Part shown: positions 22,444 to 41,606 of the stretch, in pieces
Numbering within the stretch: position 1 is the first letter of the stretch
How the letters are laid out: every line of letters starts with the position of its first letter
Assembly (NCBI GenBank): GCA_963747235.1
Contig: CAVVEU010000040.1
Location: forward strand, 320,001 to 384,000
DNA length: 64,000 nucleotides
Source: an uncultured Candidatus Rokubacteria bacterium
Lineage (GTDB): Bacteria > Methylomirabilota > Methylomirabilia > Rokubacteriales > CSP1-6
Reading direction: 5' to 3'
Notes under the pieces: generated by a model
The model's input: only the letters and a program-made list of their open reading frames with translations
Told to the model about the DNA's origin: nothing
Databases searched by the model: none
Program-made: the position numbers and the translations under genes

Positions 22444-23448
22444 CTAGTGGCTCACCGCCACCGCGCCGCTGCGCGGCGGCAGCGGCTTGCCCGCGGCCTT
22501 GGCGATGTCCTCCAGCTCCCGGGGCAGACCGAAGCGCACGTCCTCCTCGACCACGTGGACCTCCTGCACGTTGGAGCCGCGCTGGCGCCGCAGCTCCTCC
22601 ACCACCTCGGTCACCAGGTGCTCGGGCGTGGAGGCGCCCGCGGTGACCCCGACGCGGTTGGCTCCCTCGAGCCACTCCGGCCGGATGTCGTTCTTGTCGT
22701 TGATCAGATAGGACGGCGTGCCCATGACGGTGGAGACCTCGACGAGGCGGTTGGCGTTCGAGCTGTTGGCCGCGCCGATGACCAGCAGCACGTCCACCGC
22801 GCCCGCGACCGTCTTCACCGCGGCCTGGCGGTTCTGGGTCGCGTAGCAGATGTCGTCCTTGGCGGGCCCGACGATCTTGGGGAAGCGGCGCCGCAGCGCC
22901 TCGATGCAGTCCCGGGTGTCGTCCACCGACAGCGTGGTCTGGGTGAGATAGGCCACCTTGTCGGGATCGGCCACCTTGAGCTTGTCCACGTCCTCCGGGT
23001 GGGCGATCAGGAACATGCGGTCCGGCGCCTCGCCCATGGTGCCCACCACCTCGTCGTGATCGGCGTGGCCGACCAGGATGATGGAGTAGCCCTCGCGCGC
23101 GTAGCGGACGGCCTCCAGATGCACCTTGGTGACGAGCGGGCACGTGGCGTCGATCACCCGCAGCCCGCGCCGGTGGGCCTCCGCGCGCACCGCGGGCGAG
23201 ATGCCGTGGGCGCTGAAGATCACGGTGGCGTCGTCCGGCACCTCGTCCAGCTCGTCCACGAAGTGGGCGCCCTTGGCCCGGAGGGCCTCGACCACGTGCC
23301 GGTTGTGCACGATCTCCTTGCGCACGTACACGGGAGGCGGGCACACCTGGAGCGCGAGCTCGACGATGTCGATGGCGCGGTCCACCCCGGCGCAGAAGCC
23401 CCGGGGGCCGGCCAGCACGATCTGTTGCAGCGGAAGCGGCGTGGTCAT
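22444..23448 (-). CDS. ispH: 4-hydroxy-3-methylbut-2-enyl diphosphate reductase
   Basis: PRGFCAGVDRA, IVHN, FSAHG, DATCPLVTKVH, QTTLS, DICYATQNRQ, NSSN, TAGASTPE. Confidence 0.96.
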   Translation of the reverse strand: MTTPLPLQQIVLAGPRGFCAGVDRAIDIVELALQVCPPPVYVRKEIVHNRHVVEALRAKGAHFVDELDEVPDDATVIFSAHGISPAVRAEAHRRGLRVIDATCPLVTKVHLEAVRYAREGYSIILVGHADHDEVVGTMGEAPDRMFLIAHPEDVDKLKVADPDKVAYLTQTTLSVDDTRDCIEALRRRFPKIVGPAKDDICYATQNRQAAVKTVAGAVDVLLVIGAANSSNANRLVEVSTVMGTPSYLINDKNDIRPEWLEGANRVGVTAGASTPEHLVTEVVEELRRQRGSNVQEVHVVEEDVRFGLPRELEDIAKAAGKPLPPRSGAVAVSH

Positions 23449-23455
23449 CTTGCCC

Positions 23456-24040
23456 TCACTTGAAATAGAACGAAACACCGCCTATCCCCGAGTCGGAGTT
23501 GAACCCCCGGTTCGGGCTCGAGGTGTGTCCGTTCGAGATGTGCTGGAAACGATAGCCCAGATTCAACGCGACCGTGTCCGTGACGAAGTACGACAGCCCC
23601 GCCCCGGCCTCGACCACGAAGACGAACGTCGAGTCGATCTCCCTCACTTTGAGGCTCGTCCCCCCCGCTCCCGCCGTACCCTCGAGATACGGGACCAGCC
23701 GGCCGAAGCCAATCAGATGATACCGCATCGCGACCTTGATGCCCTGAGCGGTTGCCTCGTGCGGCGAGAGGTAGTACTGGAACCACCCCTCGATGCCCGG
23801 CTCGACCGCGCTCCGGAGGAGGCCGCTCCCGAAGGGGGAGAAGAACAGGTGGGACACCCGCGGGGTCGCGGTCAGGAACGAGATGTCGCTGACCGTCCGG
23901 TGGCCCTCGGCATTGTTGGCCGCGCCACCCCCGACCTGCACGCCGAAGATCGTGGTCCCCCGGGCGAACGTGGCGTCCGGGTCAAAAGCCGGCGCCGGGC
24001 GCGCCAGGGCCAGCACGGCCAAGGTGATCGCGGCCGCCAT
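23456..24040 (-). CDS. Lipid A 3-O-deacylase (PagL)/acyloxyacyl hydrolase-like outer-membrane beta-barrel
   Basis: Signal peptide APA-F; PYLEGTAGAG, YRFQHISNG..NRGFN catalytic-type motif, terminal aromatic SFYFK. Confidence 0.78.
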   Translation of the reverse strand: MAAAITLAVLALARPAPAFDPDATFARGTTIFGVQVGGGAANNAEGHRTVSDISFLTATPRVSHLFFSPFGSGLLRSAVEPGIEGWFQYYLSPHEATAQGIKVAMRYHLIGFGRLVPYLEGTAGAGGTSLKVREIDSTFVFVVEAGAGLSYFVTDTVALNLGYRFQHISNGHTSSPNRGFNSDSGIGGVSFYFK

Positions 24041-24070
24041 CGCCCGTGCGTGTCCGGTTCGTGCTTGTCC

Positions 24071-25102
24071 TCATTGCCAGGGGTCCACCAGCACCTTCAT
24101 GGTCTCACCACGCTCCATCAGGGCCAGCGCTTCTTTCACCTGCCCCAGCCCCATGCGATGAGTCAGCAGCCCCGAAGGCTCGATCGCCTTCGATTCAAGG
24201 AGTTCCACCGCGCGTCGGATCATGGCCGGGGTGTGGTGGAAGGCGCCCACCAGCGTGAGCTCTTCGTAGTGCGCCCGACGCGTGTCCACCCGCACCGAGG
24301 TGCCTGGCGCGCAGCCACCAAACAGTAGCACGGTGCCTCCGCGGCCCACGCCATCGATGGCTTGCTCCCAGACCTCCGGCCGGCCGGTCGCGTCCACGGT
24401 GACGTCGGGCCCCGGCCCGCCCGTCAGCCCCCGCAGGTGCTCCACCATGTCCGGGACGGAGAGGGCGTCCACGCAGGTGCCCAGTCCCAGCTCGCGGACC
24501 CGGTCCAGGCGCCAGCCCGCCTTGCCCACGATGACCACCCGGGCCCCGCGCTGCCGGGCCGCCAGGGCCAGCAGGCAGCCCAGGGGACCGTGGCCCCAGA
24601 TCGCCACGGTCATGCCGGCCTCGACCCGGCCCCGCTCGACCCCAAGCAGGGCACAGGCCAGCGGCTCGGCGAAGGCGGCGCTCGAGGCGGCCAGCCCGGG
24701 CCCGATCGGCACCACGTTCCGGGCGACCAGGCGCGGGGGCAGCGCGATGTACTGGCCGTAGGCCCCGTTGACGAAGAGGAGGTCCTCGCAGAGGTTCGGT
24801 CGGCCGGCCGCGCAGAGGCGGCACCGGCCGCACGGCGCCGAGTTGGCGGCGACGATCCGGTCGCCTTCCTTCGCGCCGGGAGCGCCGCGCCCCACCGCGG
24901 TGACCACGCCGGCCAGCTCGTGGCCGAACACGGTGGGCACGTGCGGGATCATCACGGGATGGCCGCGGCGCAGGGTCTTGACGTCGGTGCCGCAGGTGAG
25001 CGCCGCGTCCACCCGCACCACGAGGCCGCCCGGCTCGGGCTCGGGCACCGGGAGCTCCTCGAAGCGGAGATCGCCCGGGCCATGGAACACCTGGGCCCGC
25101 AT
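24071..25102 (-). CDS. Zinc-binding (MDR) polyol/threonine dehydrogenase-like protein
   Basis: CGTD, GHE, CGRCRLC..C, EPLAC, GHGPLG. Confidence 0.9.
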   Translation of the reverse strand: MRAQVFHGPGDLRFEELPVPEPEPGGLVVRVDAALTCGTDVKTLRRGHPVMIPHVPTVFGHELAGVVTAVGRGAPGAKEGDRIVAANSAPCGRCRLCAAGRPNLCEDLLFVNGAYGQYIALPPRLVARNVVPIGPGLAASSAAFAEPLACALLGVERGRVEAGMTVAIWGHGPLGCLLALAARQRGARVVIVGKAGWRLDRVRELGLGTCVDALSVPDMVEHLRGLTGGPGPDVTVDATGRPEVWEQAIDGVGRGGTVLLFGGCAPGTSVRVDTRRAHYEELTLVGAFHHTPAMIRRAVELLESKAIEPSGLLTHRMGLGQVKEALALMERGETMKVLVDPWQ

Positions 25103-25104
25103 GG

Positions 25105-26109
25105 CTACGGGATCACGTAGACCTTCACCGCCTCGTGGCGGCGCATCAGCTCCACACCTTCGCCCAGGCGCCCGAGCGGGAGCCGGTGGCTGATGAGGCC
25201 ATCCACCCGGATCCGGTCCCCCGCCAGCAGCGCGAAGGCCTCCTCGAGCTCGGCGGGCGAGGACGAATAGGTGGCGGTGAGGGTCAGCTCGCGATGGTAG
25301 AGCGCGCCCAGCGACAACGGCAGGCTGTCCCCCGCCCCGCCCGCGAAGTAGTGCAGCGTCCCGCCGTCGCGCACGCGCGCGGCCGCGGCGGGCAGCACGG
25401 CCGCGCCACCCGCGGTGACGATCACCAGGTCGGCGCCGCGCCCCTCGGTGGCCTCGCGCAGCGCCGCGTCCAGCGCCGGGTCGGCCTCGAAGACCCGCGC
25501 GCCCATGCGGCGCCCCAGCGCGCGGCGCGGCTCGAGCAGGTCGGAGGCGAACACCCGCGCGCCCTCGAGCGCCAGGAGCTGCGCGAGCAGGCAGCCGATC
25601 GAGCCCAGGCCCACCACGAGCGCGGTGTCACCCGCGGCCACGCGGCTGCGCTTCACCGCGCGCAGGCAGCAGGCCAGCGGCTCGGTGAAGGACGCGGTCT
25701 CCTCGGTCATCTCCGCGGGCAGGCGGAAGGCGGCGTGCTCCACGTTGGGCGCGGGCACGCGCACCCGCTCCGCGAAGCCGCCCGGATCGAGATTGACGCG
25801 CTTGAAGTGCCGGCACATGGACGGGCTGCCGCGCCGGCAGTAGTGGCAGTGAAAGCACGGCACGTGATGGGCGACGACGAGCCGGTCGCCCGGCGCGAAG
25901 CGCCGTACGCCGGCCCCGACCTCCAAGACCTGGCCCACCACCTCGTGGCCGAGGACGGCCGGCCCGGGCGCGGCCGCGTTGATCTTGAGGATGTCGGACC
26001 CGCAGAGCCCGCAGCCGCTCACGCGCAGCAGGAGCTCGCCGGGGCCCGGGACCGGCTCGGGCCACTCGCGCAGCTCGATGGCGCCCGCGTCGCAGACCGC
26101 GGCCTTCAC
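25105..26109 (-). CDS. Second zinc-binding (MDR) dehydrogenase
   Basis: GTG overlaps hpnD stop; CGSD, GHE, CFHCHYC..C, EPLAC, GLGSIG. Confidence 0.9.
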   Translation of the reverse strand: MKAAVCDAGAIELREWPEPVPGPGELLLRVSGCGLCGSDILKINAAAPGPAVLGHEVVGQVLEVGAGVRRFAPGDRLVVAHHVPCFHCHYCRRGSPSMCRHFKRVNLDPGGFAERVRVPAPNVEHAAFRLPAEMTEETASFTEPLACCLRAVKRSRVAAGDTALVVGLGSIGCLLAQLLALEGARVFASDLLEPRRALGRRMGARVFEADPALDAALREATEGRGADLVIVTAGGAAVLPAAAARVRDGGTLHYFAGGAGDSLPLSLGALYHRELTLTATYSSSPAELEEAFALLAGDRIRVDGLISHRLPLGRLGEGVELMRRHEAVKVYVIP

Positions 26110-26954
26110 GAGGTGGCCAGGCGGGCGCCGAGCCAGCCGCGGAAGGCGATGGCGAGGCGGCGCGGCGTGGACAGGGTCACGCGACGGGCGAAGACGTCGA
26201 AGCGGCGCGCCTCGATCGCCCGGAGCAGCGCGAAGTAGGTACGTCCCATGATCTCGGCCGCGAACAGCCGACGCGCGTCCGCCGCGGGCAGCGCCGCCCA
26301 CGCGCGCGCGTAGTACTCGTGGGCGCGGGCCGCCTCGAAGGTCATGAGCTGGACGAACCCGGGCGTGTACCGGCCCTGGGCCAGATCCTCCGCGGTCACG
26401 CCGAAGCGCCGCAGGTCCGCCTGGGGGAGGTAGACGCGCCCGATGCGCGCGTCCACCTGGACGTCCCGGAGGATGTTGGTGATCTGGAGCGCGACGCCCA
26501 GGTTCACCGCGTACTCGCGCGCCCGCGGGTCCGAGTAGCCGAAGATCTCGATGCAGCAGAGACCCACCGCGGAGGCCACGCGATAGCAGTAGGGATAGAG
26601 CGCGTCGAAGGTCTCGTAGGTGGGATGGTCCATGTCCATCTCCACCCCCGCGATGATCTCCTCGAGCGCGGCGCGCGGGATCGGGAAGCGGCGCACCGCC
26701 ACCTGGAGCCGCTGGCCGGCCGGATGCTCGGGCCGCCCCTCGTAGACGCGCGCGATCTCCTCGCGCCAGCGCCCGAGCTCCGCGCGCTGCTTCTCGCGGT
26801 CCGACACCTCGTCCACCGCGTCGTCCACGATACGGCAGAAGGCATAGCAGGCGTAGATGGCCTCGCGCTGGGCCCGCGGCAGGCAGAGGAACGCGTAGAA
26901 GAAGTTCGAGCGGCTCTTGCGGGTGAGGCGCGAGACGAACTGGTGCGCGTTCAT
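26106..26954 (-). CDS. hpnD: Presqualene diphosphate synthase HpnD (squalene/phytoene synthase family)
   Basis: SRSNFFYAF, YAFCRIVDDAVD, YCYRVASAVG, LQITNILRDV, GRVYLP. Confidence 0.88.
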   Translation of the reverse strand: MNAHQFVSRLTRKSRSNFFYAFLCLPRAQREAIYACYAFCRIVDDAVDEVSDREKQRAELGRWREEIARVYEGRPEHPAGQRLQVAVRRFPIPRAALEEIIAGVEMDMDHPTYETFDALYPYCYRVASAVGLCCIEIFGYSDPRAREYAVNLGVALQITNILRDVQVDARIGRVYLPQADLRRFGVTAEDLAQGRYTPGFVQLMTFEAARAHEYYARAWAALPAADARRLFAAEIMGRTYFALLRAIEARRFDVFARRVTLSTPRRLAIAFRGWLGARLATS

Positions 26955-27992
26955 CTGATATGCGGGGGCCCAGAAATGGCCCCCGCACTCCCCCGATTCC
27001 GTTTGGCGTTCGCATAACCGCGGGCGGTGAACCAAGCAACCGCGTCCTTCAGGGCGGTCTCCGCCGGGGTCTGCGGCAGGCCCAGTTCGCGGATGGCCTT
27101 GTCGGCGCTGAAGTACATGCGCTTGCGGGCCATGCGGACCGCGGTGAGGGGGACGGCGGGCGGGCGGCGCGTGATCAGGGACGACGCCTTCCATCGCCGC
27201 CGCGGCCATCCACGCGACCGCGTAGGGGACGCGGAAGCGGGGGGCGGGCACGCCGGTCAGCGTCGAGAGCATCTGGAAGATCTCGAGGAGAGACAGGTTG
27301 CGGTGGCCCAGGATGTAGCGCTCGCCCACCCGGCCCTTCTCGGCGGCCAGGATGTGACCGCGGGCGACATCGCGCACGTGGACCACGTTGAGCCCGGTGT
27401 CCACCGAGCCGACCATCTTGCCGTTGAGGAAGTCCACGATCATCTGCCCGGTCGGGGTGGGCTTGACGTCCCACGGGCCGATCGGCGCCGACGGGTTGAC
27501 GATGATCACCGGCGCGCCGCGCGCCGCCCATTCGTCGGCCACGCGCTCGGCCAGGAACTTGGACGCCTTGTAGGCGCCCACCATGTCCGCGAGCGACACC
27601 GGCGTCGTCTCGTCGCCCGGCGTGCCGTCCTTGGGAATGCCGACCGCGCCCACCGTCGACGTGTAGACGATGCGCTCGGCGCCCGCCTCGGCCGCCGCGG
27701 CCAGCAGGTGCCGCGTGCCGTCCACGTTCGCGCGGTAGAGCACCTTCAAGTCCGGCGCCCAGAGCCGGTAGTCGGCGGCCACGTGGTAGACGTGACGGGC
27801 GCCGGCCACCGCGACGCGGAGCGAGCGCTCATCCAGCAGATCGCCCTCGACGATGTCCACCGCGCAGCCCTCGAGCGCGCGCCGGTCGCCGCCGGGCCGC
27901 GCCAGGACGCGCACCGTGTGGCCGTCCGCGAGGAGCTCGCGGACCAGGTTGGCCCCCACGAACCCGGTGCCGCCGGTGACGAGGACGTTCAC
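26951..27992 (-). CDS. hpnA: Hopanoid-associated sugar epimerase HpnA (frameshift near 27180)
   Basis: TGGTGFVG, HVAADYRLW, YKASK, DVKPTPTG; true C-terminus MYFSADKAIRELG lies in ORF 26951..27133. Confidence 0.88.
26961..26987. repeat. 10-bp perfect inverted repeat in the hpnA 3' tail
   Basis: TGCGGGGGCC-cagaaat-GGCCCCCGCA; overlapping 15-mer CCCCCGCACTCCCCC recurs at 54652-54666. Confidence 0.5.
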
Positions 27993-28705
27993 GGCCGCGA
28001 AGCGGCCGCGAGCCCGGCGAGCACCCGCGCGACCGCGGTGAGCGCGCGCCGGGTGGCCTGGCCCAGGGCCAGGGCGCGCGGCAGCAGGCGCGGCCGCGTG
28101 ACCGTCAGCGCCAGCGCGCGCACCGGGCGCAGCTTGCCCGCCGGTGTCATCAGCCCGATGAGCTCGAGGGGCACGCTCTCGCTCGCCGCGTCCGACACGC
28201 CGCGCACGACCAGCGTCGGGCAGCCCGCGGCCGCCGCGTGGGCGAGGATGACGGCCGACTCCATGTCCACCGCCACCGCGCCGCTGCTCGCGAAGAGCGC
28301 GGACTTGGCCTCGGCCGTCGCCACCACCTCGCGCGAGGTCACGAGCGTGCCGCCGCGCGCGGTGCCGGCCAGGAGGATGGCCTGCCGGTGCGGCGTGGGC
28401 GTCACGTTGAGCCGCTCGCCGCTGGGCCCGAGCACGCTCTCGGGCAGGACCAGATCGCCCGCGCTCAGATCGGGCGCGAGGCCCCCGCAGACGCCGCCCG
28501 AGACCACGAGCGGATAGTTGAAGCCGGCGAGGAGCCGCGGCCAGCGCGAGACGAGGAGACCGGCCCGGAGGCCGACCGGAGCGACCCGGAGCAGCCCGCG
28601 ACCGAAGGCGGGAAAGGGCAGCACGGTGATGGGCGGGAGCTCGAGCCGGCGGGCCAGGACCCGCGCCTCGAGCTCAACCGCGGTGAGGATCAGGATCCCG
28701 GACAC
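27989..28705 (-). CDS. hpnG: Hopanoid-associated nucleosidase/phosphorylase HpnG
   Basis: GVCGGLAPDLSAGD, AVAVDMES, VRGVSD; lies between hpnH and hpnA. Confidence 0.8.
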   Translation of the reverse strand: MSGILILTAVELEARVLARRLELPPITVLPFPAFGRGLLRVAPVGLRAGLLVSRWPRLLAGFNYPLVVSGGVCGGLAPDLSAGDLVLPESVLGPSGERLNVTPTPHRQAILLAGTARGGTLVTSREVVATAEAKSALFASSGAVAVDMESAVILAHAAAAGCPTLVVRGVSDAASESVPLELIGLMTPAGKLRPVRALALTVTRPRLLPRALALGQATRRALTAVARVLAGLAAASRP

Positions 28706-29033
28706 TCCCGGCGGCCGCGCCCTTCTCGGCCTTCTCCCGCTCCTTGCGCTCGAGCCACGCCCGCCAGCTATTCCCGGCCGCGGTGTCCTTGCCGGAGAAC
28801 TTGATGTTGGCGATCTCGGCGTAGCGGAGCGTGATGGGTCCCTCGCCGCTCTCGTCGAAGTACTCGAGGAAGGGCTCGGGCCCGTAGGTGTTGCGGTTGA
28901 AGATGTACCCGACCACCTCGGTGCCGTCGGTCCGGACGATCGTGGTGTTGCCCCGGTAGTCGAAGGCGAACTCCACCACTTCCGCCAGCGTGAGGTACTG
29001 CCCGACGTCGGGCACCCAGCCCTCGAGGGTCAC
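28674..29033 (-). CDS. Hypothetical protein (119 aa) in hpn operon
   Basis: Normal codon style, tightly packed; AFDYRGNTTIVRTDGTEVVGYIFNR. Confidence 0.7.
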   Translation of the reverse strand: MTLEGWVPDVGQYLTLAEVVEFAFDYRGNTTIVRTDGTEVVGYIFNRNTYGPEPFLEYFDESGEGPITLRYAEIANIKFSGKDTAAGNSWRAWLERKEREKAEKGAAAGSVRDPDPHRG

Positions 29034-29043
29034 GCGGCGCCCC

Positions 29044-30060
29044 CTACAGCTTGCCGGTCAGCGTGACCCCGACCGTTTCCACGAAGCCCTTCATCGAGCT
29101 GAACGTGTAGTCCACGGCCGTGGCCTCGTACCCGCAGTGCACCATGCAGTCCCGGCACTTCTCGTTGCCGCTCTTCTTGCCGTAGTTCTCCCAGGGGGTG
29201 GTGTCCATCAGCTCCCGGAAGGTCTTCGTGTACCCCTCTTGCAGCAGGTAGCACGGGCGCTGCCACCCGAACATGTTGTAGGTCGGGTTGCCCCACGGGG
29301 TGCACTCGAAGTCGTGCTTGCCCATCAGGAACCGGAGGAAGAGCGGCGACTGGTTGAACCGCCAGCGCTTCTTCGGCTGCGAGAGCATCTTGGTGAAGAG
29401 CTCGTGGGTGCGGGACTGCAGCAGGAAGTGCTCCTGGTCGGGCGCCTTCGAGTAGCTGTAGCCCGGGGAGATCATCATGCCCTCGACGCCCAGGGTCATC
29501 ATCTCGTCGAAGAACTCGCGCATCCGCAGCGGCGAGGCCCCGTCGAAGAGCGTGCTGTTCGTCGTCACCCGGAAGCCGCGCGCCACCGCTTCCCGGATCG
29601 CGGGGACCGCCTGGTCGTAGACGCCGTCGCGGCACACCGCCTCGTCGTGCTCCTCGCGCAGGCCGTCCATGTGGACGCTGAACGAGAGGTACTTCGACGG
29701 GGTGAAGAGGTCGAGCTTCTCCTTCAGCAGGATGGCGTTGGTGCACAGATACACGTACTTCTTCCGCTTCACCAGCTCCGCCACCAGACGATCGATCTCC
29801 GGGTACATGAGCGGCTCGCCGCCCGGGATGCTGACCATCGGCGCCCCGCACTCCTCCACCGCGGCGAGGCACTTCTCGACGCTCAGGTGCTTGCGGAGGA
29901 TCTGGGCCGGATACTGGATCTTGCCGCACCCCGCGCAGGCCAGGTTGCAGCGGAAGAGCGGCTCGAGCATCAGAACGAGCGGATAGCGCTTGCGCCCGGC
30001 CAGCTTCTGGCGCAGGACGTACGTCGCCACCGTCCACATCTGAGACACCGGAACGCCCAT
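29044..30060 (-). CDS. hpnH: Adenosyl-hopene transferase HpnH (radical SAM)
   Basis: RYPLVLMLEPLFRCNLACAGCGKI, SIPGGEPL, CTPWGNPT, GWQRPCYL, CRDCMVHCGYE. Confidence 0.95.
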   Translation of the reverse strand: MGVPVSQMWTVATYVLRQKLAGRKRYPLVLMLEPLFRCNLACAGCGKIQYPAQILRKHLSVEKCLAAVEECGAPMVSIPGGEPLMYPEIDRLVAELVKRKKYVYLCTNAILLKEKLDLFTPSKYLSFSVHMDGLREEHDEAVCRDGVYDQAVPAIREAVARGFRVTTNSTLFDGASPLRMREFFDEMMTLGVEGMMISPGYSYSKAPDQEHFLLQSRTHELFTKMLSQPKKRWRFNQSPLFLRFLMGKHDFECTPWGNPTYNMFGWQRPCYLLQEGYTKTFRELMDTTPWENYGKKSGNEKCRDCMVHCGYEATAVDYTFSSMKGFVETVGVTLTGKL

Positions 30061-30082: not shown

Positions 30083-30865
30083 TCAGTGGGTGACGGACAG
30101 CCGCCCGGCCGACCGTCGGCCGGGCGCGACCCGACTGAGACTGTACAGTAGCAGAAAGACCACCGACTGGACCACTATTCCCGCGGCGGCAATGAGCAAT
30201 TCGCCGATCCACAGCGTCACGGTCAGGTTGACCGCCAGGACCAGATAGTAGAGCGCGATCCCCAGGCGGGGCGAGCCCAGCCGCCGCTCCCCGACCAGCC
30301 AGACGTAGCCACCCACCGTGGCCCAGCCGACCAGGAGCCAGCCGGCGAAATTGGAGAGCGGGACCCCGAAGTAGAGGCCCCCCTCCGGGTAGGTGAAGAG
30401 ATGGCCGAGGAACCAGCGCTCGCCCCGCACCGCCAGCGGATCGATCACCACGTCCAGCAAGGTCATCAGCACGCCCGACAGGGCCACCAGGCGAAGCCGC
30501 CCCACGCCGCTTCCGGCCCAGCCGGGGCCGAGCGCGCGGCGGGCGAGGCAGAAGGAGGCATAGGCCAGGAACGGGAACGACAGCGGCGAGAAGAACGGGA
30601 CGTTCCCGAGGAACAGCTCCGCGCCCGCGGTCGCGCCGGTGTAGTGGTAGAGCCCGAAGGGCAGCCCCCCGCGCGTGGACGAGAGCTCGGCCACCAGCGC
30701 GACGAGAAAGCCCCAGAGCAGGAACCCGAGGGTGCGGGCGCGTCCAAGGTCACGGATGCCCGCGGACAGGAAGAAGGCCAGGAAGCCGACCACGTACGGT
30801 CGCAGCACGACGGTGCCCCCGAGCAGACTCACGACCGACCAGACCGTGTCCAGTGAGTTCGCCAC
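30083..30865 (-). CDS. CruF-like carotenoid biosynthesis membrane protein (DUF422 type)
   Basis: AELSSTRGGLPFGLYHY, NVPFF, LDVVIDPLAV, YFGVPLSNFAGW. Confidence 0.78.
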   Translation of the reverse strand: MANSLDTVWSVVSLLGGTVVLRPYVVGFLAFFLSAGIRDLGRARTLGFLLWGFLVALVAELSSTRGGLPFGLYHYTGATAGAELFLGNVPFFSPLSFPFLAYASFCLARRALGPGWAGSGVGRLRLVALSGVLMTLLDVVIDPLAVRGERWFLGHLFTYPEGGLYFGVPLSNFAGWLLVGWATVGGYVWLVGERRLGSPRLGIALYYLVLAVNLTVTLWIGELLIAAAGIVVQSVVFLLLYSLSRVAPGRRSAGRLSVTH

Positions 30866-30871
30866 GGATTC

Positions 30872-30900
30872 ACGATACGGAATTGGTCGGTTTTTTTCAA
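30872..30900 (-). promoter_or_regulatory. Putative promoter of the hpn operon (leaderless)
   Basis: TTGAAA-17 bp-TATCGT, 6 nt before GTG start. Confidence 0.6.
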
Positions 30901-30927
30901 GGACGGCGGCTGGTTGGCGCAGCTCTG

Positions 30928-30936
30928 TGCTAGTAT
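30928..30936 (+). promoter_or_regulatory. Extended -10 promoter of the mla operon (leaderless)
   Basis: TGc-TAGTAT, 6 nt before ATG 30943. Confidence 0.5.
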
Positions 30937-30942
30937 CGGGCG

Positions 30943-32498: not shown

Positions 32499-32511
32499 CC
32501 GGGAGAACAGA

Positions 32512-33611: not shown

Positions 33612-34789
33612 ACGGCGCCGCGTTCGCGGCGCGGCTGGAAGCGCAGGGCTACGACTTCTTCACCGGCGTGCCCTGCTCGATGATCGCGGGCCTCATCGCC
33701 ACGCTGGAGACGCACCCGCGCCTGCCCTATGTCCCGGCGGTGCGCGAGGACGTGGCGGTGGGGCTGGCCGCGGGGGCCTGGCTGGCCGGGCGGCGGCCGA
33801 TGGTCCTCATGCAGAACTCGGGCCTCGGCACGAGCCTCAACGCGCTGGTCTCGCTGTCGCTCATGTACCGCCTCCCCGCGCTGCTGCTCGTGACCTGGCG
33901 CGGCCACGCGGGCAAGGACGCCCCCGAGCACCTGCTGATGGGCGAGATCTCGCCGAGCCTGCTCGAGATGATCCGCATCCCGCACCGCGTGCTCTCGGCC
34001 AAGACCATCGCGGACGACATCGCGTGGGGCCGAGCCGAGTCGGAGCGCCTGAGCCAGCCCGTCGCCCTTCTGTTACCGCCCGGCATGCTCGAAACGGAAG
34101 AACGCGGGGCAGTGGCAGGGCGAGGTGAAGCCGAAGGCGAGCCGAGCGGATATAAAAATAGAGGGCGCCTGTCAGAAGCGCCATGGACTGACCGCACGCC
34201 CACCGCCCGCATCTCCCGCTTCGAAGCCCTGCGCGCCGCGGTCTCGGCGCTGACGTCCGAGCCGGTGGTCCACGCCAACGGCTACGTCTGCCGCGAGTCG
34301 TTCGCGGTCAAGGACCGGATCGAGAACTTCTACATGATCGGCTCGATGGGCATGGCCTCCGCGATCGGCCTGGGCGTGGCGCTCGCGGCGCCGTCGCGCC
34401 CCACCGTGATCTGGGACGGCGACGGCAACCTGCTCATGAGCCTGGGCATCCTGCCGATGATCGGCGGCGGCCCGGTGATGGGGCGCGGCCGGCCGGCCAA
34501 CCTGACGCACGTGGTGTTCGACAACGCCCTCTACGGCTCCACCGGCAACCAGGCGTCGCCCTCGCGCACGGTCGGCCTCCACCACATCGCGCGGGCCGCC
34601 GGCTACGAGCGCGCCACCGCCGTCGCGGGCGCCGACGAGCTGCACGCCGCCGTCGCCACCGCCGTCGCGGGCGGCGGACCGAGCTTCATCCTGGCGCGCG
34701 TGACCGGAGAGGAGCAGCCGGCGCCCCGCATCCCCTACTCCCCGGAAGAGATCCGCGATCGCTTCCGCTCGTCCCTGGTCAACCGGTGA
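33608..34789 (+). CDS. Phosphonopyruvate/sulfopyruvate decarboxylase family TPP enzyme (alpha+beta in one chain)
   Basis: FFTGVPCS, REDVAVGLAAGA, MQNSGLG, NFYMIGSMGMAS, DGDGNLLM..VFDN..STGNQ. Confidence 0.85.
   Translation: MNGAAFAARLEAQGYDFFTGVPCSMIAGLIATLETHPRLPYVPAVREDVAVGLAAGAWLAGRRPMVLMQNSGLGTSLNALVSLSLMYRLPALLLVTWRGHAGKDAPEHLLMGEISPSLLEMIRIPHRVLSAKTIADDIAWGRAESERLSQPVALLLPPGMLETEERGAVAGRGEAEGEPSGYKNRGRLSEAPWTDRTPTARISRFEALRAAVSALTSEPVVHANGYVCRESFAVKDRIENFYMIGSMGMASAIGLGVALAAPSRPTVIWDGDGNLLMSLGILPMIGGGPVMGRGRPANLTHVVFDNALYGSTGNQASPSRTVGLHHIARAAGYERATAVAGADELHAAVATAVAGGGPSFILARVTGEEQPAPRIPYSPEEIRDRFRSSLVNR
34110..34154 (+). repeat. 45-bp intragenic repeat, copy 1
   Basis: 40/45 identical to the reverse complement of 60166-60210; perfect core AGCCGAAGGCGAGCCGAGCGGATATA. 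Confidence 0.8.
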
Positions 34790-35526
34790 AGGCCATCATC
34801 CTGGTCGCCGGCGTCGCGCGGCGGCTGGCGCCGCTCACCGATTCCACCCACAAGGCCCTGCTGGAGGTGGGCGGCCGCTCCCTGCTCGATCGCATGCTGG
34901 AAGGGCTCGCGGCGTGCGGAGTGGAGGAGTCGGTGCTCGTGGTCGGGCACTGCCAGGACCAGGTGCGCCGCGCCGCGGGCGCGTCGCGCGGCGCCATGCG
35001 GATCAGCTACGTCGAGAACCCGGATTATCAAAAGGGCTCGATCCTGTCCCTGTGGCACGCCCGCGAGGCCATGCTGAACGGCTCCACCCTGATCATGGAC
35101 GCCGACGTGCTCTTCCCGGAGCGCTTCCTGACCCGGCTCATCGCCGCGCCCGCGCCGAGCGCGCTGCTCCTCGACCGCGGCTTCGAGGACACCGGCGAGG
35201 AGGTCAAGCTCTACGCGGTGGGCGATCGGGTCATCGCGCTCGGCAAGAAGTTCGTGCCCGAGGCCTGGGACGTGATCGGCGAGGGCATCGGGTTCTTCAA
35301 GTGCGGCGCGGCCCACGCTCCGGAGTACGTGCGCCTCCTGGAGGAATCCATCCAGGAAACGGGCGGGGCCAACGAGTACGAGGACGCCCTGCACCGGCTC
35401 CTCGCGCGGGTGCCCGTGGGCTGGGTGGACGTCACGGGCCTGCCGTGGACCGAGGTGGACTTCACGGAGGACCTGCGCCGGGCCGAGACGCAGGTCCTCC
35501 CCAAGATCGAGAGTCTCGGGCGCTGA
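34786..35526 (+). CDS. Phosphocholine/phosphonate/inositol-phosphate cytidylyltransferase family protein
   Basis: AIILVAGVARRL..HKALLEVGGRSLL, NPDY, MDADV, GEGIG, WTEVDFTEDL. Confidence 0.85.
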   Translation: MKAIILVAGVARRLAPLTDSTHKALLEVGGRSLLDRMLEGLAACGVEESVLVVGHCQDQVRRAAGASRGAMRISYVENPDYQKGSILSLWHAREAMLNGSTLIMDADVLFPERFLTRLIAAPAPSALLLDRGFEDTGEEVKLYAVGDRVIALGKKFVPEAWDVIGEGIGFFKCGAAHAPEYVRLLEESIQETGGANEYEDALHRLLARVPVGWVDVTGLPWTEVDFTEDLRRAETQVLPKIESLGR

Positions 35527-35527
35527 T

Positions 35528-36701
35528 GTGGTCCGCGCCCTTCTCTATCTCCCCGACGACGCGGCGCCGGCCCTAGCCGCCGCCGCCGTCTCCGGACGCC
35601 CGCTCGCCGTCCGCGCCATGGTCGCGGCTCTACGCGCCGGCGCCTCCCTGATCGCGGCGCCCTCGACGCTGCGCGACGCGGAGGCCGAGCGCGCGCTGCG
35701 CCGGATGCCCGCGCTGGCCGCCGCGGTGAGCTGGCTCACGCCGGGCGCACCCGCACCCGCGGAGGAGCCCGGCGCGTGGCTGCTCCTCCCCGCCTCCTCG
35801 CTGATCCACGTGAGCGCCCTCGCCGGCCTCTTCGCCGCGCCCGCGCCGCGGGGCGCGGTGCTGGCGCCCTCGGCCGGCGGGCCGGCGCCGGTGGCGCTCG
35901 TCCCCGCGCCGCTCGTCGCCGAGCTCTGGACGGACCTGGCAGCCGGTCGGCCGGTCGGGGCCCTGCTCGCGCGACGGCTCCTGGACGCCGGGGCCCCGGC
36001 CCGCGAGGCGACGGGCCCCCACGTCGCCGTCCGCGAGGCGTCGGACCTGGCCCGCGCGGAAGCAGCGCTCGAGGCCACGCTGGGCATCGCGGTGGATTCC
36101 GGCGTGGACCGATACCTCCACCGGCGCGGCTCGCGCTGGATCAGCCGGCTCCTGGTGCGCACGCCCGGTGGCGCCGAATCACGTGAGCCTCGTGAGCCTG
36201 GCGATCGGCCTGGTCGCCATCTGGTGCTTCTGGCACGCGACCGCCGCGAGCGCCCTGCTGGGCGTGCTGGTCTACGCGCTCGCCTGCATCGTCGACCATG
36301 CCGACGGCGAGATCGCCCGGCTGACGTTCCAGGAGTCGCGCCTGGGGGCCAACCTCGACTGGACGATCGACACGATCATCCACGCGGGCATCGTGTTCGG
36401 CATCGGCGTCAGCTCGGGAGGACGGCTCATGGCCGTGGTCGGGTTCCTGGCCGCGGTCGGGGTGACATTGAGCGCGGTCTTCGCCCGCTACCTCCCCCGG
36501 GAGATCGAGGTCGGTCCCTCCGTGGGCGGCCTGCTCACGCACATCGCCAACCGGGATCTCTTCTACCTCGTGCTGCTCTCCTTCGCGGCCCTGCGATGGC
36601 TGGCGCCGTCGCTCGTCTTCGTGGTGGCGGTGGTCGTCGCGGTGGGCTCGCAGGTCTACTGGGTGGGCTGCCTCGCCCGTATCTGGAGGCCGCGCCCCTA
36701 G
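35528..36701 (+). CDS. CDP-alcohol phosphatidyltransferase with degenerate N-terminal NTP-transferase-like domain (frameshift near 36165)
   Basis: GVDRYLHRRGS, PNHVS, DHADGEIARLTFQESRLGANLDWTID = DxxDGxxAR..GxxxDxxxD. Confidence 0.82.
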
Positions 36702-37672
36702 TGTCCCGCTGGTTCCGCCCGCTTCTCATCGTCACCGGCCTGGCCCTCGTGGGCTACCTGGTCGCGCAGATCGGCCCTGCCGCGATCTGGTCCTCGTTCG
36801 TCACGCTCGGCTGGCGCCTGCCGATCGTGCTCGCCTTCCCGTACGCGCTGGCCGCGGCGGTGGACACGCTGGCCTGGCGGCTCCTCCTGCCCACGCCGGT
36901 GCCCTTTCTCCTCCTCCTGCGCGCGCGTCTTGCCGGGGAGGCGGTGAGCCTGGCCACGCCCACGATGTCGGTGGGCGGCGATCCGCTCAAGGCCTACCTG
37001 CTGCGGCCGCGGCTCCCCCTGCTCGACGGCTTCGTCTCGGTGATCGCGGACAAGACCACCGTGGTGGCCGGCCAGGTGATCTTCCTCGCCCTGGGGCTCC
37101 TGGCCGCGACGTCTATGGCGGCGCCTCCGGAGGGCCGGCTCCTGCCGGTGATGGCCGGGCTGCTGGTGGTGGAGGTGCTCGCGGTCGGCGGCTTCGCGCT
37201 GGTGCAGGCCAGCGGCGCGCTGGGCGGCGGCGGGCGCCTGCTCGGCCGGCTCGCCAAGCGCGTGGGCGTGGGCGGCGCCGAACGCTTCGAGCAGGGCCTG
37301 GACGACCTGGACCGGGCGCTGGCCGGGCTCTATCGCCACCGGTGGCGGCGCCTCGTCGCCTCCGCGATCGTCCACGCGGTGGCCTGGGCCACCGGCGGCC
37401 TCGAGATCTACCTGGTGCTGAGCCTGCTGGGGACGCCGGCGCCGCTCGGCATCGCCCTGATCGTCGAGTCCTTCGCGAGCGGCGTGAAGTTCGCCAGCTT
37501 CATGGTGCCCGCCTCGCTCGGGGTGCTCGAGGGCGGCTACGTGGTCTTCTTCGAGGCCTTCGGCCTGGGGGCCACCGCCGGCCTCTCCTACGTGCTGGTG
37601 CGGCGGCTCCGCGAGATCACGTGGGCCGTCGTGGGGTTCCTCGCCCTGGGCGCCGAGCGCCCACCGGCCTAG
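36701..37672 (+). CDS. Lysylphosphatidylglycerol synthase TM / flippase-like protein (UPF0104 type)
   Basis: GTG overlaps previous stop; GEAVSLATP..GGDPLKAYLL, VPASLGVLEGG, LVRRLRE. Confidence 0.82.
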   Translation: MSRWFRPLLIVTGLALVGYLVAQIGPAAIWSSFVTLGWRLPIVLAFPYALAAAVDTLAWRLLLPTPVPFLLLLRARLAGEAVSLATPTMSVGGDPLKAYLLRPRLPLLDGFVSVIADKTTVVAGQVIFLALGLLAATSMAAPPEGRLLPVMAGLLVVEVLAVGGFALVQASGALGGGGRLLGRLAKRVGVGGAERFEQGLDDLDRALAGLYRHRWRRLVASAIVHAVAWATGGLEIYLVLSLLGTPAPLGIALIVESFASGVKFASFMVPASLGVLEGGYVVFFEAFGLGATAGLSYVLVRRLREITWAVVGFLALGAERPPA

Positions 37673-37697
37673 GTCTGCGGCCGGCCCTCGGGGCGTG

Positions 37698-37706
37698 TGC
37701 TAGACT
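37698..37706 (+). promoter_or_regulatory. Extended -10 element upstream of ino1
   Basis: TGc-TAGACT; GAGGAGG SD before GTG 37763. Confidence 0.4.
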
Positions 37707-37762
37707 CTGTGGGTCTGACGCGTCGCCGCATGTCGCGGTGACGAAGCGCTGAGGAGGCGGCC

Positions 37763-38836
37763 GTGGGATCTGTTCGCGTTGCGGTGGTCGGTGTCGGTAA
37801 CTGCGCATCCGCCCTCGTCCAGGGTGTCCACTACTACAAGGGTGCGCCCGACGACGGCTTCATCCCTGGTCTCATGCGTCCCCGGCTGGGCGGCTATCAC
37901 GTCGGGGATATCGAGTTCGTGGCCGCCTTCGACATCGACGCCAACAAGGTGGGCCTGGACCTGGGCGAGGCCATCGGGGTCAAGCCCAACAACACCGTCC
38001 GCTTCGCGGAGGTCCCCCGCCTGGGGGTGCCGGTGCAGCGGGGCATGACCCACGACGGGCTCGGGCACTACCTGTCCCAGATCATCACCAAGGCCCCCGG
38101 CAGCACCGCCGACATCAAGAGCATCCTGCGGGAGACCCGCACCGACGTGGTGGTCAACTTTCTGCCGGTGGGCAGCGAGATGGCCACCAAGTGGTACGTC
38201 GAGCAGGTGCTCGACGCGGGCTGCGGCTTCGTCAACTGCATCCCGGTGTTCATCGCCCGGGAGGAGTACTGGCGCCGCCGCTTCGAGGATCGCGGGCTGC
38301 CGGTGGTGGGCGACGACGTGAAGTCGCAGGTGGGCGCCACCATCATCCACCGCATCCTGACCAAGCTCTTCATGGACCGCGGGGTGCGGCTCGAGCGGAC
38401 CAGCCAGCTCAACGTGGGCGGCAACACCGACTTCTACAACATGCTGGAGCGCCAGCGGCTGCACTCCAAGAAGATCTCCAAGACGGACGCGGTCCGCTCC
38501 CAGCTCGCCCACGACATGGCCGACGACAACATCCACATCGGCCCGAGCGACTACGTGCCGTGGCTCGAGGACCGGAAGTGGGCGCACATCCGCCTGGAGG
38601 GCCGCAGCTTCGGGGACCAGCCCATCAACGTCGAGCTGAAGCTCGAGGTGTGGGACTCGCCCAACTCGGCGGGCGTGGTCATCGACGCGATCCGCTCCTG
38701 CAAGATCGCGATGGACCGCGGGATCAAGGGCGCCCTGCTCGCGCCCTCCGCCTACCTGATGAAGTCTCCGCCCGAGCAGTGGTCGGACGAGGTGGCGCAC
38801 ACGCGCCTGGAAACGTTCATCAACGGCGCCGAGTAA
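37763..38836 (+). CDS. ino1: Inositol-3-phosphate synthase
   Basis: [55 protein letters not shown]. Confidence 0.95.
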
Positions 38837-38860
38837 CCGCGCCGTCGTCGGTTCCGCTTC

Positions 38861-41606
38861 ATGATCGCGATTTCCCGGACCGGCCGCGTTCTCCGCCGGC
38901 TGGTTCGGCTGTCCTGCCGCCGGCCCGCCGTCACGGTGGCGATCTCCCTCCTGCTCGCCGCCGCCGCGATCGCCTACACCACCCACGCGCTGACCTTCAA
39001 GACCTCCACCCGCGCCCTGCTGCCCCAGGACGCGGGCTACGTGGTGCGCTACGCGGAGTACGCCAAGGAGTTCGGCGAGCTCGAGGACATCGTGGTGGTG
39101 GTGGAGGCCGGCTCCTTCGAGGGCGCGCGCGCCTACGCGGCGCGCCTCACCGAGGAGCTCCGGCAGGCGCCGGTCAAGTTCCAGCGGGTCGCCTACCGGA
39201 TCGACCCCAAGCGGTTCGAGGGCCGCCAGCTCCTCTACCTGACGACCCCCGAGCTGCGCGAGATCCGCGACAAGATCTTCGACCACCAGGAGTTCATGGA
39301 GAGCTTCGCGGGCGACCCGAGCCTGGCCCGCCTGCTCGAGGGCGTGAACACCCAGATGGCGGCCGCCTTCGTCTCCAACCTCTTCGACATCGGGCTCCAG
39401 GACAAGGACCTGCCGGTGGACACGCGCTTCCTGCGCGTGCTCCTGGACCAGATGGCGAGCCGCCTGGAGCGGCCCGCGCCCTACCGCTCGCCCTGGGGCA
39501 CGCTCTTCTCCTTCGGCGAGGACCCGCCCGACGACGCCGGCTACTTCCTCTCCGAGGACAAGAGCCTGCTCTTCATCCTGGTGGAGACCCCGCCCAGCGA
39601 GAAGGGCAGCTTCATGGGCGACCAGGCCGCCATCGAGACGATTCGCGAGGCGGTCGCCAAGCTGCGGCCCGCCTTCCCGAACGTGCAGGCCGGCGTGACC
39701 GGCGCGCCCGCGCTGTCCAACGACGAGATGACGGCGGCCTTCCACGACAGCAGCATCTCGGACGTGCTGGCCTTCGCCCTCACGCTGCTGGTCATGACCC
39801 TGGCCTTCATGCGGGTGGGCAAGCCGGTGCTCATGCTGGGCGTGCTCGCGGTGACGCTGGCCTGGTCCATGGGCGTGGTCACCCTCACGGTGGGACACCT
39901 CACCCTCTTCTCGGTGATGTTCATCTCCATCGTGGTCGGCATCGGCATCGACTACGGCATCTACTATCTCTTCCGCTACGAGGAGGAGATCTTCCTGGGC
40001 CGGAACCTCCGCGAAGCCCTCGAGCACACCGCGGCGCGCACCGGCCCCGGCATGCTGGCGGGCGCGCTGACCGCGGCCGGGACGTTCTTCGTGCTGATGC
40101 TCACCGATTTCCGGGGCATCCAGGAGCTGGGCTTCATCGCGGGCATCGCGATCCTGATCGCCTGGGTCGGGATGATGACGCTCTTCCCCGCGATCCTGGT
40201 GTTCGTGGACAGCCACCACGCGGACCGCCCGCGGGGGCAGCGGCCCCGCGCGCACCAGCTCGAGCGCATCCGCGTGCCGCTCCTGGACCGCCTGGTCACC
40301 TACCCCCGCACCGTCCTGATCGGCGGCGGGCCTCCTCACCGCGTTCTCGATCTGGGCGGTGCCCCGCGTGGGCTTCGACTACAACGTGCTCAACCTGCAG
40401 GCCAAGGGCACCGAGTCGGTGGCGTGGGAGCGCCGCATCCTCGCGAGCACCGGCCGCTCCGGCTTCAACGCCTTGTCCTCCGCCTCGTCTCTCGAAGAGC
40501 TGCGCGCCAAGCAGGCCGCCTTCGAGAAGCTGCCGTCGGTCTCCGACACCGATTCGGTCCTGCGCGTGATCCCGGACGATCAGGCCGAGAAGATCGCCCT
40601 GATCAAGAGCTTCGGCCCCCTGGTGGCCCCGATCCGCGTCGGCCGCTCGAGCCCGGTGGATCTCGACCGCCTCAAGCAGGCGCTCGCCGACATCAAGCGG
40701 CGCTTCGACGTGGTCGCGGTCGAGGCGGGGGCCAAGCTGCCCGCCGAGATCCGGGTGGTCCGCGACAAGACCATCGCGGTGCAGCGCCTGCTCGCGCGCA
40801 GCAACCGCGACTCGGCGGAGGCGGCGCTGAACTACCTGCAGGCCCAGCTCTACCGGGACTTCGTGAACAAGTTCTACAGCCTCCAGCGCAACCTCAAGCC
40901 CACCTCCGTGACCATCAAGGACGTGCCGGAAGAGCTCCAGCGCAAGTTCATCGGCGAGAACGGCCGCTTCCTCATCCAGATCCATCCCAAGGTGGACATC
41001 TGGGAGAAGGCGGGCGCGGCCCAGTTCGTGCGGGACCTGCGCACGGTGGATCCCGACGTCACCGGCCCGCCCATCATCACCTACGAGGCCACGGTGCTGA
41101 TGGAGCGCGCCTACCTCACCGGGAGCCTCTACGCCTTCGTCCTCGTCGGCGGCCTCAGCATTCTCATGATCCGGCGCATGCGCGAGAGCCTGCTCGGGCT
41201 CGTGCCGATGGTGCTGGGCGTCCTCTGGACCGTGGGCCTGATGCAGGTCTTCGGCATCAAGTTCAACCTGGCCAATATCTGGGGCCTGCCGCTCATCATC
41301 GGCACCGCGGCCGAGTTCGGCCTCAACGTGATCCTGAGCCACCTGGAGGGCCGCGCCCACGGCGGCCCGCTCGTCGCCCGCAGCGCGGTGCTGGGCGTCG
41401 CGCTGAACGGCATCACCACCATGGTGGGCTTCGGCAGCCTCATGATCGCCACCCACCAGGGCATCTTCAGCCTGGGCCTGCTGCTGACCCTGGGCTCGGC
41501 CTGCGGGCTCGTGGCCGCGCTGATCGTCCTGCCGGTGGTGCTCAAGCTGCTGATGAAGCCGGTGGAGCAGCAGGCCGCGCCGATCGAGAAGCCGTCGGCC
41601 GCGTAA
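38861..41606 (+). CDS. hpnN: MMPL/RND transporter HpnN (frameshift near 40325)
   Basis: AGVTGAPAL, GIGIDYGIY, FRGIQELG, second repeat VTGPPI, NLANIW, TTMVGFGSL; located in hpn cluster. Confidence 0.82.

Follow-up and report, generated by a model that had tools for sequence, protein, structure and literature searches.

A conserved hopanoid gene cluster of Rokubacteriales contains a partial phosphonate-attachment cassette that may serve to modify hopanoids

The stretch of DNA considered here (the window) comprises 64,000 nucleotides, C40:320001-384000 (contig CAVVEU010000040.1), of the 5.57-Mb, 88%-complete genome of an uncultured Candidatus Rokubacteria bacterium. It contains two divergent operons for the synthesis and transport of hopanoids, and the rightward operon carries, between its transporter genes hpnM and hpnN, a group of head-group genes. 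These are well supported as a partial (eroded) phosphonate-attachment set, consisting of a phosphonopyruvate decarboxylase (Ppd), a phosphonate cytidylyltransferase (PntC), a CDP-alcohol transferase and an HpnL-like membrane protein. We propose that this cassette activates 2-aminoethylphosphonate (AEP) as CMP-AEP (CMP, cytidine monophosphate) and transfers it to a membrane-lipid alcohol; that bacteriohopanetetrol (BHT) accepts it at its C-35 hydroxyl, the likeliest case, is a serious possibility if somewhat short of probable. The cluster is conserved across Rokubacteriales, and it is also present in named Ca. Rokubacteria / Methylomirabilota records; it is not a product of chance, since the loci examined from the same family show this arrangement again.

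The genes of the head-group region, together with a 2-oxoglutarate (2OG) oxygenase homologue that lies beyond it, are as follows. (Where two bit scores stand together, here and below, they are the NCBIfam score and its cut-off.)

33608..34789, plus strand: Ppd-like phosphonopyruvate decarboxylase (TIGR03297, 287/313 bits, just under the cut-off)
34786..35526, plus strand: PntC-like phosphonate cytidylyltransferase (best match in the Protein Data Bank, PDB, 6PD1)
35528..36701, plus strand: CDP-alcohol phosphotransferase with an N-terminal soluble domain and one extra base near 36166 (PF01066)
36698..37672, plus strand: HpnL-like membrane protein of the LPG synthase TM / AglD family (TIGR03476, 155/196 bits, under the cut-off; PF03706)
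37763..38836, plus strand: ino1, inositol-3-phosphate synthase (PF01658; TIGR03450, 524/638 bits, under the cut-off)
43649..44209, minus strand: 2OG-Fe(II) oxygenase homologue, matched stretch only (55% over 187 amino acids)

The identity of the first two genes follows from profile scores, structural matches and a tree. The thiamine pyrophosphate (TPP) enzyme scores 287 bits with the Ppd model versus 160 with ComE and 120 with ComD (NCBIfam), and its best PDB match is 9IZ3, a putative Ppd. The window PntC scores 120 bits with the profile for 6PD1 versus 98 for LicC and 89 for inositol-phosphate cytidylyltransferase (IPCT), and its R13, K23, K155 and E199 correspond to R15, K25, K153 and E196 of the Treponema enzyme. 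In a FastTree phylogeny it nests in a clade of enzymes from AEP cassettes without a visible ino1 (support 98), apart from the enzyme of the inositol module described below (support 100); on scores and tree, IPCT was rejected as its identity. The preliminary description, which was made from the letters of the stretch, had proposed a phosphonate-, sulfonate- or phosphoinositol-linked head group. For the window genes, the Ppd and PntC scores, the structure matches and the tree bear out the phosphonate version, while activation of phosphoinositol by the window nucleotidyltransferase is unlikely, given that the enzyme groups with those of AEP cassettes and not with those of inositol modules.

For the CDP-alcohol transferase, the intact copy of a relative matches AF2299 (4O6M) and IPCT/DIPPS (4MND). 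The gene that follows it, previously called flippase-like, is indeed present but is better assigned as HpnL-like; consequently a named hopanoid-associated family does lie in the window. In TIGRFAMs, a second homologue of HpnL is already associated with AEP lipids. In this genome a second HpnL-like gene, frameshifted, is found at C15:91787-92714 and is 40-43% identical to the window copy. The idea that HpnL is specific to one head group is unsupported, as the Rokubacteriales copies that stand beside either module form one clade in a quick tree.

Cassette contents were tallied in 37 same-family loci over the interval from mlaD to ino1. Ppd is present in 26 of these, PntC in 23, HpnL in 21 and the CDP-alcohol transferase in 20; a mutase-PntC fusion occurs in eight, an AEP transaminase in two, and the 2OG oxygenase, whose homologue in the window lies 2 kb beyond hpnN on the opposite strand, is within the cassette in 11. 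No locus carries all seven gene types. The ratio of nonsynonymous to synonymous substitution rates (dN/dS) is ~0.07-0.34 for all cassette genes, indicating purifying selection (simple NG86 estimates from few pairs, from which the g16 CDP-transferase value of 0.65 was dropped as probably that of a paralogue).

Two observations concern the surroundings of Ppd in relatives. In families f6 and f8, proteins of 310 amino acids with an N-terminal THxxLA motif are encoded directly before the Ppd alpha subunit or fused to it (L027:8012-9900, L026:8043-8987, L025, L068-L070); they have no Pfam or NCBIfam match and are possibly metal-dependent hydrolases. In addition, there is a second site at which the same Ppd clade precedes a canonical PepM-PntC fusion (L018, L057-L059 and L061, compared with L048, L065-L067 and L071), and several genomes retain the Ppd at this site while the mutase is missing.

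No phosphoenolpyruvate (PEP) mutase was found in this 88%-complete genome by profile, motif scan or variant-profile search; the best match to TIGR02320 (150 bits) has a KKCGH lyase motif and was rejected. Nor was one found in three same-genus genomes that are 91-100% complete, or detected in family f8 (0 of 3). Thus pepM, for which a search of the genome had been suggested, was not found, and de novo phosphonate synthesis by this bacterium is unsupported. In the window the hpnM stop overlaps the ppd start exactly where relatives hold a variant of the mutase. Among relatives, the closest two, at a protein identity of mostly 85-99%, have neither mutase nor Ppd, yet their PntC, transferase and HpnL genes are intact, with dN/dS of 0.14-0.26 against the window. 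PhnS2, the binding protein of an AEP-type ABC transporter, scores over the cut-off in 20 of 30 genomes, including all six others of the same genus, and the PhnS2/U2 uptake operon is present, in frameshifted form, in this one. A transaminase of the PhnW-AepZ family is likewise over its cut-off and is encoded in trans (C40:227546-228448, none being in the window), near a gene that we take to be PhnA-like. Because no mutase was found, the attachment genes of relatives are intact, and AEP uptake genes and a PhnW-type transaminase are at hand, AEP is likely to be supplied by salvage.

Among the relatives, 32 of 80 genomes tested have a PepM-like match. In 12 of the 32 the mutase, fused to PntC, directly precedes the cluster Ppd, with the motif EDNxFPKxCS in 11 and EDNxFPKxSS in one. 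Compared with solved structures, this variant scores 280 bits as PepM, 220 as phosphonopyruvate hydrolase and 116 as methylisocitrate lyase; it keeps counterparts of Lys120, Arg159 and His190, and its dN/dS is 0.07-0.15. However, Lys116 is replaced by Asn and Asn122 by Cys, and the variant therefore fails the EDKX5NS filter, which two published surveys apply. A scan of GTDB was examined for the best 80 of at least 571 relatives (the search patterns select for the variant clade, so that the counts do not estimate prevalence), and EDKX5NS is missing from all 80. Hosts of the variant include Sorangium cellulosum So ce56, Polyangiaceae, Planctomycetota, Omnitrophota, Blastocatellia and Binatus. 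Three loci from records titled Nitrosocosmicus or Verrucomicrobiia (L083, L085, L094) have a Rokubacteria-type cluster and 75-79% mutase identity; these titles probably do not give the origin of the contigs.

A synteny survey had been suggested at the outset; comparison of gene order revealed linkage between hpn and head-group genes in relatives and, in other arrangements, in other phyla. From the best 80 of at least 571 variant loci, gene order and identity assigned 21 to the Rokubacteria type (including four that are labelled otherwise) and left 59 as others; an hpn gene lies within 10 kb in 14 of the 59. In the Omnitrophota-like loci L184, L185 and L187 the order shc-hpnH-ppd-aepZ-CDP-hpnL-hpnA forms a single run, in Binatia-like genomes the cassette faces hpnJ, and in families f6 and f8 it is inserted in still other gene orders. 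A small protein with weak matches to squalene-cyclase/prenyltransferase repeats is encoded inside the Omnitrophota-like shc-phosphonate operon (L157:14168-15169, L129:13388-14503).

The ino1 gene next to the cassette is the sole copy found in the genome, and it is present in 71 of 73 same-family genomes, far more steadily than the phosphonate genes. A second module, at C31:90923-96717 (L221), encodes a HAD protein, a nucleotidyltransferase, an ATP-grasp-like protein, a class III aminotransferase, a Gfo dehydrogenase and a CDP-alcohol transferase (the ATP-grasp assignment is weak: RimK E ~1e-5, best PDB E 1e-3, ITPK1 E 0.07). With ino1, which encodes a myo-inositol-phosphate synthase (MIPS), in the window and the rest on C31, the genome has a MIPS, nucleotidyltransferase, HAD protein and CDP-alcohol transferase all available, and ino1 likely feeds this amino-inositol cassette elsewhere in the genome. 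The chemistry presumably resembles that of streptidine-type aminocyclitols. Several relatives have the module and the hopanoid cluster joined together. In families f5 (probably the Methylomirabilis family) and f6 it stands in one operon with a long-form MIPS, with hpnL leading the module and a long-form MIPS or MIPS-like open reading frame (ORF) following it (flanks of L195, L197, L206); it comes directly after shc in L197, L198 and L205, and faces hpnM-hpnN in L195, L196 and L206. One f6 genome has an amidinotransferase gene between shc and hpnL (L197:12455-13564), whose product scores 348-467 bits with its two best PDB matches and 257 bits with the inosamine-phosphate amidinotransferase 1BWD, a hint of a guanidino-cyclitol head group.

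The second module and the mutase tend not to occur together. By a hand tally of 63 same-family genomes, the module is present in 11 of 27 that have a PepM-like gene versus 31 of 36 that do not (Fisher p 3e-4, an overstated value, given the non-independence of kin and a choice of genomes that was guided largely by Ppd), and only two of 12 genomes carrying the mutase variant have it. Such near-complementarity fits two exchangeable head groups, without proving them.

Taken together, these findings suggest the following pathway. Squalene-hopene cyclase (SHC, in trans), HpnH and HpnG would give ribosylhopane, by established chemistry for which the genes are present, and one or both of two Zn dehydrogenases encoded in the leftward operon, or HpnA, would reduce it to BHT. 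AEP would be taken up by PhnS2/U2, or be formed from phosphonopyruvate by Ppd together with the PhnW-type transaminase in trans; relatives could make it de novo through the Cys-variant mutase. Given that no PEP mutase was found in its genome, this bacterium would rely on imported AEP. Judging from homology and conserved residues, PntC would convert AEP to CMP-AEP, which the CDP-alcohol transferase would use to attach AEP, with HpnL as a helper or flippase; HpnN and HpnM would then carry the lipid outward. Ino1 would supply the second cassette in trans, leading to an alternative amino-inositol-phosphate head group. In a more general and more speculative form, which we consider possible but well short of probable, HpnL and the CDP-alcohol transferase would be a general device that caps bacteriohopanepolyols (BHPs) with phosphorus-linked amino head groups provided by two interchangeable supply modules, one for AEP and one for amino-inositol phosphate. 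If so, Rokubacteria, Omnitrophota-like and Binatia-like bacteria make phosphono- and phospho-cyclitol hopanoids that standard BHP analysis has missed, and motif-filtered surveys have undercounted phosphonate producers. A hopanoid acceptor would mean a new composite class of BHPs, a possible biomarker for uncultured Rokubacteria, and a first function for HpnL, whose function is stated to be unknown (PMC12324291, PMC12583986). Whatever the acceptor is, counts of phosphonate producers that rely on the EDKX5NS filter leave out the Cys-variant mutase clade, which is directly testable in a cultured organism, So ce56.

A number of observations weigh against this proposal. Among 50 non-Rokubacteria genomes with a mutase cassette (nine Sorangium/Polyangiaceae loci were left out of the count), 29, including the complete So ce56, have no SHC over the cut-off, against 21 that do, and in five of the SHC-negative genomes the cassette is still accompanied by a CDP-alcohol transferase and HpnL (L107, L114, L136, L137, L155). 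In Bacteroides, a cluster of MIPS, nucleotidyltransferase, CDP-alcohol transferase, HAD and LPG-synthase genes goes with ordinary phosphatidylinositol (PI)-diacylglycerol and PI-ceramide (PMC9246714). The literature searched, which lacks most subscription geochemistry papers, yielded no report of a phospho- or phosphono-BHP, and the BHPs cited for Methylomirabilis oxyfera, in the text available, are BHP-hexol and its 3-methyl form. Position 105 of the window PntC is Asp, as in LicC, and not Glu, so that phosphocholine or another substrate is possible. The cassette is found in 15 different states over the 37 loci; eight of these keep Ppd alone, which fits no attachment model (dN/dS is 0.27 in the genus tested), and in this assembly both the CDP-alcohol transferase and hpnN are frameshifted.

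A second explanation, which we also regard as possible but less than probable, is that a conventional phosphonolipid is made (AEP on diacylglycerol or similar), alongside an inositol or amino-inositol phospholipid, and that the genes cluster because of a shared role in the envelope. Complete cassettes do exist without SHC; for the most similar clusters described, phospholipid products have been predicted or shown; CDP-alcohol transferases, as is generally known, usually use glycerol-based acceptors; and the mlaFED genes of the same operon encode phospholipid transporters in E. coli. However, both supply modules, although unrelated to each other, lie inserted among core hpn genes, in several lineages and orders, and HpnL tracks hopanoid genomes in Alphaproteobacteria, where hpnL is found only in genomes that bear hpnH (PMC12583986). 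Moreover, the Burkholderiales group that offers the nearest described parallel has, in the text available, no characterised phosphonolipid (PMC8942020).

It is unlikely that the cassette here has been decaying since the mutase was lost and survives as a remnant, so that only standard BHPs (BHT and 3-methyl forms) are made. Such decay would be consistent with the missing mutase, the 15 erosion states, the extra bases in the CDP-alcohol transferase and hpnN, and Ppd dN/dS values of 0.27-0.32 in mutase-less genera, somewhat above the 0.19-0.23 of mutase-bearing ones. Against it, the closest relatives, without mutase and Ppd, keep PntC, transferase and HpnL intact at dN/dS of 0.14-0.26, AEP uptake and PhnW genes are present, and frameshifts occur genome-wide. 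Finally, a sulfonate head group such as taurine, with the TPP enzyme acting as a sulfopyruvate decarboxylase, is very improbable: the ComD and ComE models do also match, and Ppd is retained without a mutase in many genomes, but the Ppd model scores above both, the best structure is a putative Ppd, close homologues adjoin canonical PepM, cytidylyl activation is generally held to require a phosphate or phosphonate, and the route is rejected for want of a source of sulfopyruvate among the genomes tested (ComA in 0 of 5 genomes; cysteate synthase over the cut-off in 1 of 30, not this one).

The leftward operon likely makes the C35 hopanoid side chain from which the proposed AEP acceptor would derive. 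Its genes, and the gap that separates it from the rightward operon, are as follows.

22444..23448, minus strand: ispH of the methylerythritol phosphate (MEP) pathway (NF002188, 460/420 bits)
23456..24040, minus strand: PagL-like outer-membrane beta-barrel (PF09411, 52 bits)
24071..25102, minus strand: Zn-dependent polyol-type dehydrogenase 2 (PF08240 and PF00107)
25105..26109, minus strand: Zn-dependent polyol-type dehydrogenase 1, candidate for ribosylhopane reduction (Pfam and NCBIfam)
26106..26954, minus strand: hpnD, presqualene diphosphate synthase (TIGR03465, 322/279 bits)
27000..27992, minus strand: hpnA, epimerase-like, 3' end approximate (TIGR03466, 388/368 bits)
27989..28705, minus strand: hpnG-like phosphorylase (TIGR03468, 120/187 bits, under the cut-off; syntenic)
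28674..29033, minus strand: conserved ORF of 119 amino acids with a predicted Sm/LSm-like fold (model pLDDT 81)
29044..30060, minus strand: hpnH, adenosylhopane synthase (TIGR03470, 543/225 bits)
30083..30865, minus strand: CruF-like membrane protein, possibly a hydratase (PF04240, 100 bits; CruF models under the cut-off)
30866..30942, no strand: 77-bp divergent gap, the position of shc in other genera (locus comparison)

The ribosylhopane reductase is described as still unassigned (PMC12583986). For this reason, and because Acidobacteria are known to have a similar gene, ug2, the Zn dehydrogenases rank only as candidates for the step from ribosylhopane to BHT. Of the 35 same-family loci in which hpnD is visible, 34 contain one or both of them; the best NCBIfam matches of dehydrogenase 2 are Tdh/IolM at ~140 bits, far under the cut-off. 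The 119-amino-acid ORF has no Pfam or NCBIfam match, and the fold matches of its model are weak and of Sm/LSm/WYL type (best Foldseek E 6e-3, none <=1e-3). The PagL-like gene adjoins shc/hpnM in family f6 as well.

The gap itself has the 77 bp previously reported, from the cruF-like start at 30865 to the mlaE start at 30943, and contains one σ70-like match (9/12, minus strand). Of 42 same-family loci reaching from hpnH to mlaE, 37 have shc in this position, and the five exceptions all belong to the genus of this bacterium. The search for shc elsewhere in the genome, also suggested at the outset, succeeded: a copy is found at C30:14867-16747 (610 bits versus a cut-off of 431), and a second, frameshifted, on C6. 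The distant SHC is 85-95% identical to same-genus copies and 40-44% to the cluster type, and all five same-genus genomes hold one shc away from the cluster; on these comparisons the simplest reading is that the cluster shc was lost and the distant copy is used instead. The two copies (C30:14798-16810 and C6:34676-36703) are 98% identical over the part compared and lie on short contigs with similar flanks, possibly a strain duplication in the bin.

The preliminary description had noted that the known tailoring genes, shc, hpnC and hpnE are not in the window. This is correct for shc, hpnJ and hpnR, but all three are present elsewhere in the genome: HpnJ, frameshifted, at C40:400831-402226, 17 kb beyond the window (in some relatives, L019, L079, L080 and L167, hpnJ adjoins hpnN), and HpnR with 846 bits. 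HpnI, HpnK, HpnE and HpnC were not found in the 88%-complete genome, so that HpnJ of the cyclitol-ether branch is present without HpnI and HpnK; with no HpnI found, the C-35 hydroxyl would not be glycosylated by the known route. No HpnO-named model is among the matches of the 12 class III aminotransferase ORFs scanned. For squalene supply, HpnD is present, and a Sqs-like gene with a DTxxD motif at C24:399641-400666, scoring only 76-98 bits, may be the supplier; that HpnCDE and Sqs occur together irregularly in Rokubacteria has already been published (PMC7306690).

The transport genes of the rightward operon flank the head-group genes on both sides.

30943..32952, plus strand: mlaE, mlaF and mlaD (PF02405, PF00005, PF02470/TIGR04430)
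32979..33611, plus strand: MlaC/HpnM-like periplasmic shuttle (PF05494, 169 bits; TIGR03481, 95/160 bits)
38861..41606, plus strand: hpnN-like RND/MMPL transporter with one extra base near 40324 (TIGR03480, 275+290/752 bits, in two pieces)

MlaF, E, D and C are thus all present in the window (Pfam, NCBIfam), with MlaD (141/135 bits) and the MlaE family (244/212 bits) both over the NCBIfam cut-off. In some relatives a TolC-family outer-membrane protein is encoded beside hpnM, usually in the mlaD-hpnM interval (L021:9853-11298, L046, L050, L161, L169; families f2/f6/f8). Malate synthase A, in several frameshifted pieces, lies directly 3' of hpnN (window 41735-43623) and occupies the same place in several relatives.

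All the genes listed in the preliminary description are there, in the order and orientation given (ORFs, Pfam, NCBIfam). Compared with three to four close relatives, a single extra base is seen in hpnA near 27183, in the CDP-alcohol transferase near 36166 and in hpnN near 40324. The first of these joins hpnA and hpnD in one ORF of 628 amino acids, and a genuine HpnA-HpnD fusion was rejected on this ground. Because hpnJ, one shc copy, the AEP transporter and malate synthase are broken in a comparable way in this genome, the three extra bases are probably assembly errors. The stretch is partly contained in 21 of the 24 sequencing runs listed, with a share of 0.55 at best and of 0.08-0.14 in RNA runs.

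The closest parallel to the cassette is the 'Burkholderiales_CDP-OH' or Group 1 phosphonolipid core (Li and Horsman 2022, PMC8942020), which consists of seven genes whose product is uncharacterised: a Ppm-PntC fusion, Ppd, an AEP transaminase, a 2OG oxygenase, a second PntC and two phospholipid-type genes. All seven gene types occur across the Rokubacteriales relatives, between hpnM and ino1. Unlike the Burkholderiales core, the Rokubacteriales cassette has a mutase with EDNxFPKxCS and is embedded in a hopanoid operon, and this genome is without the mutase and an in-cluster transaminase. The best structural match of the window PntC is the Treponema denticola enzyme (6PD1/6PD2; Rice et al. 2019, PMC6697681), whose catalytic Arg15, Lys25 and Lys153 and AEP-binding Glu196 have counterparts; unlike it, the window enzyme has Asp for Glu104, a weak overall match (55 bits) and no transaminase fusion. 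Among PEP mutases (5UNC, 1M1B), the relatives' variant is closest to PepM, with Lys120, Arg159 and His190 kept and Lys116 and Asn122 changed.

The Ino1-fed cassette resembles a putative alternative inositol-lipid cluster of Bacteroides vulgatus and Prevotella, which likewise has a MIPS, nucleotidyltransferase, CDP-alcohol transferase, HAD and LPG-synthase-like gene (Heaver et al. 2022, PMC9246714). The hosts of that cluster make PI lipids without hopanoids (PMC9246714), whereas the Methylomirabilota cassette occurs in hopanoid operons and further includes genes for an ATP-grasp protein, class III aminotransferase and Gfo dehydrogenase, with an amidinotransferase in some cases. A lipid type with a phosphonate head group on a hopanoid is apparently undescribed; no described counterpart was found in the literature searched, which is mostly without subscription geochemistry papers. 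In both versions of the Lawrence preprint the string 'phosphon' does not occur in the main text as available, and papers on Methylomirabilis hopanoid gene clusters and on myxobacterial PEP mutase offered, by their titles and the start of their abstracts, nothing relevant to the cluster or the variant. For a linkage of pepM with terpenoid genes in Roseomonas and Belnapia, one published sentence guesses at an 'undiscovered terpene-phosphonate' (PMC8776678), with no accompanying gene-level analysis in the text available.

Like canonical hpn clusters (PMC12583986, PMC12324291), the window has hpnH, hpnG, hpnA, hpnD, hpnN, an hpnM-like and an hpnL-like gene. It is unlike them in that shc is displaced, hpnC, hpnE, hpnI and hpnK were not found, and the full mlaFED set, Zn dehydrogenases, phosphonate genes and ino1 lie inside it. 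The ug2 Zn-alcohol dehydrogenase of acidobacterial hopanoid clusters (PMC5462960) likewise stands beside squalene genes, and in the window this position is taken by a tandem pair.

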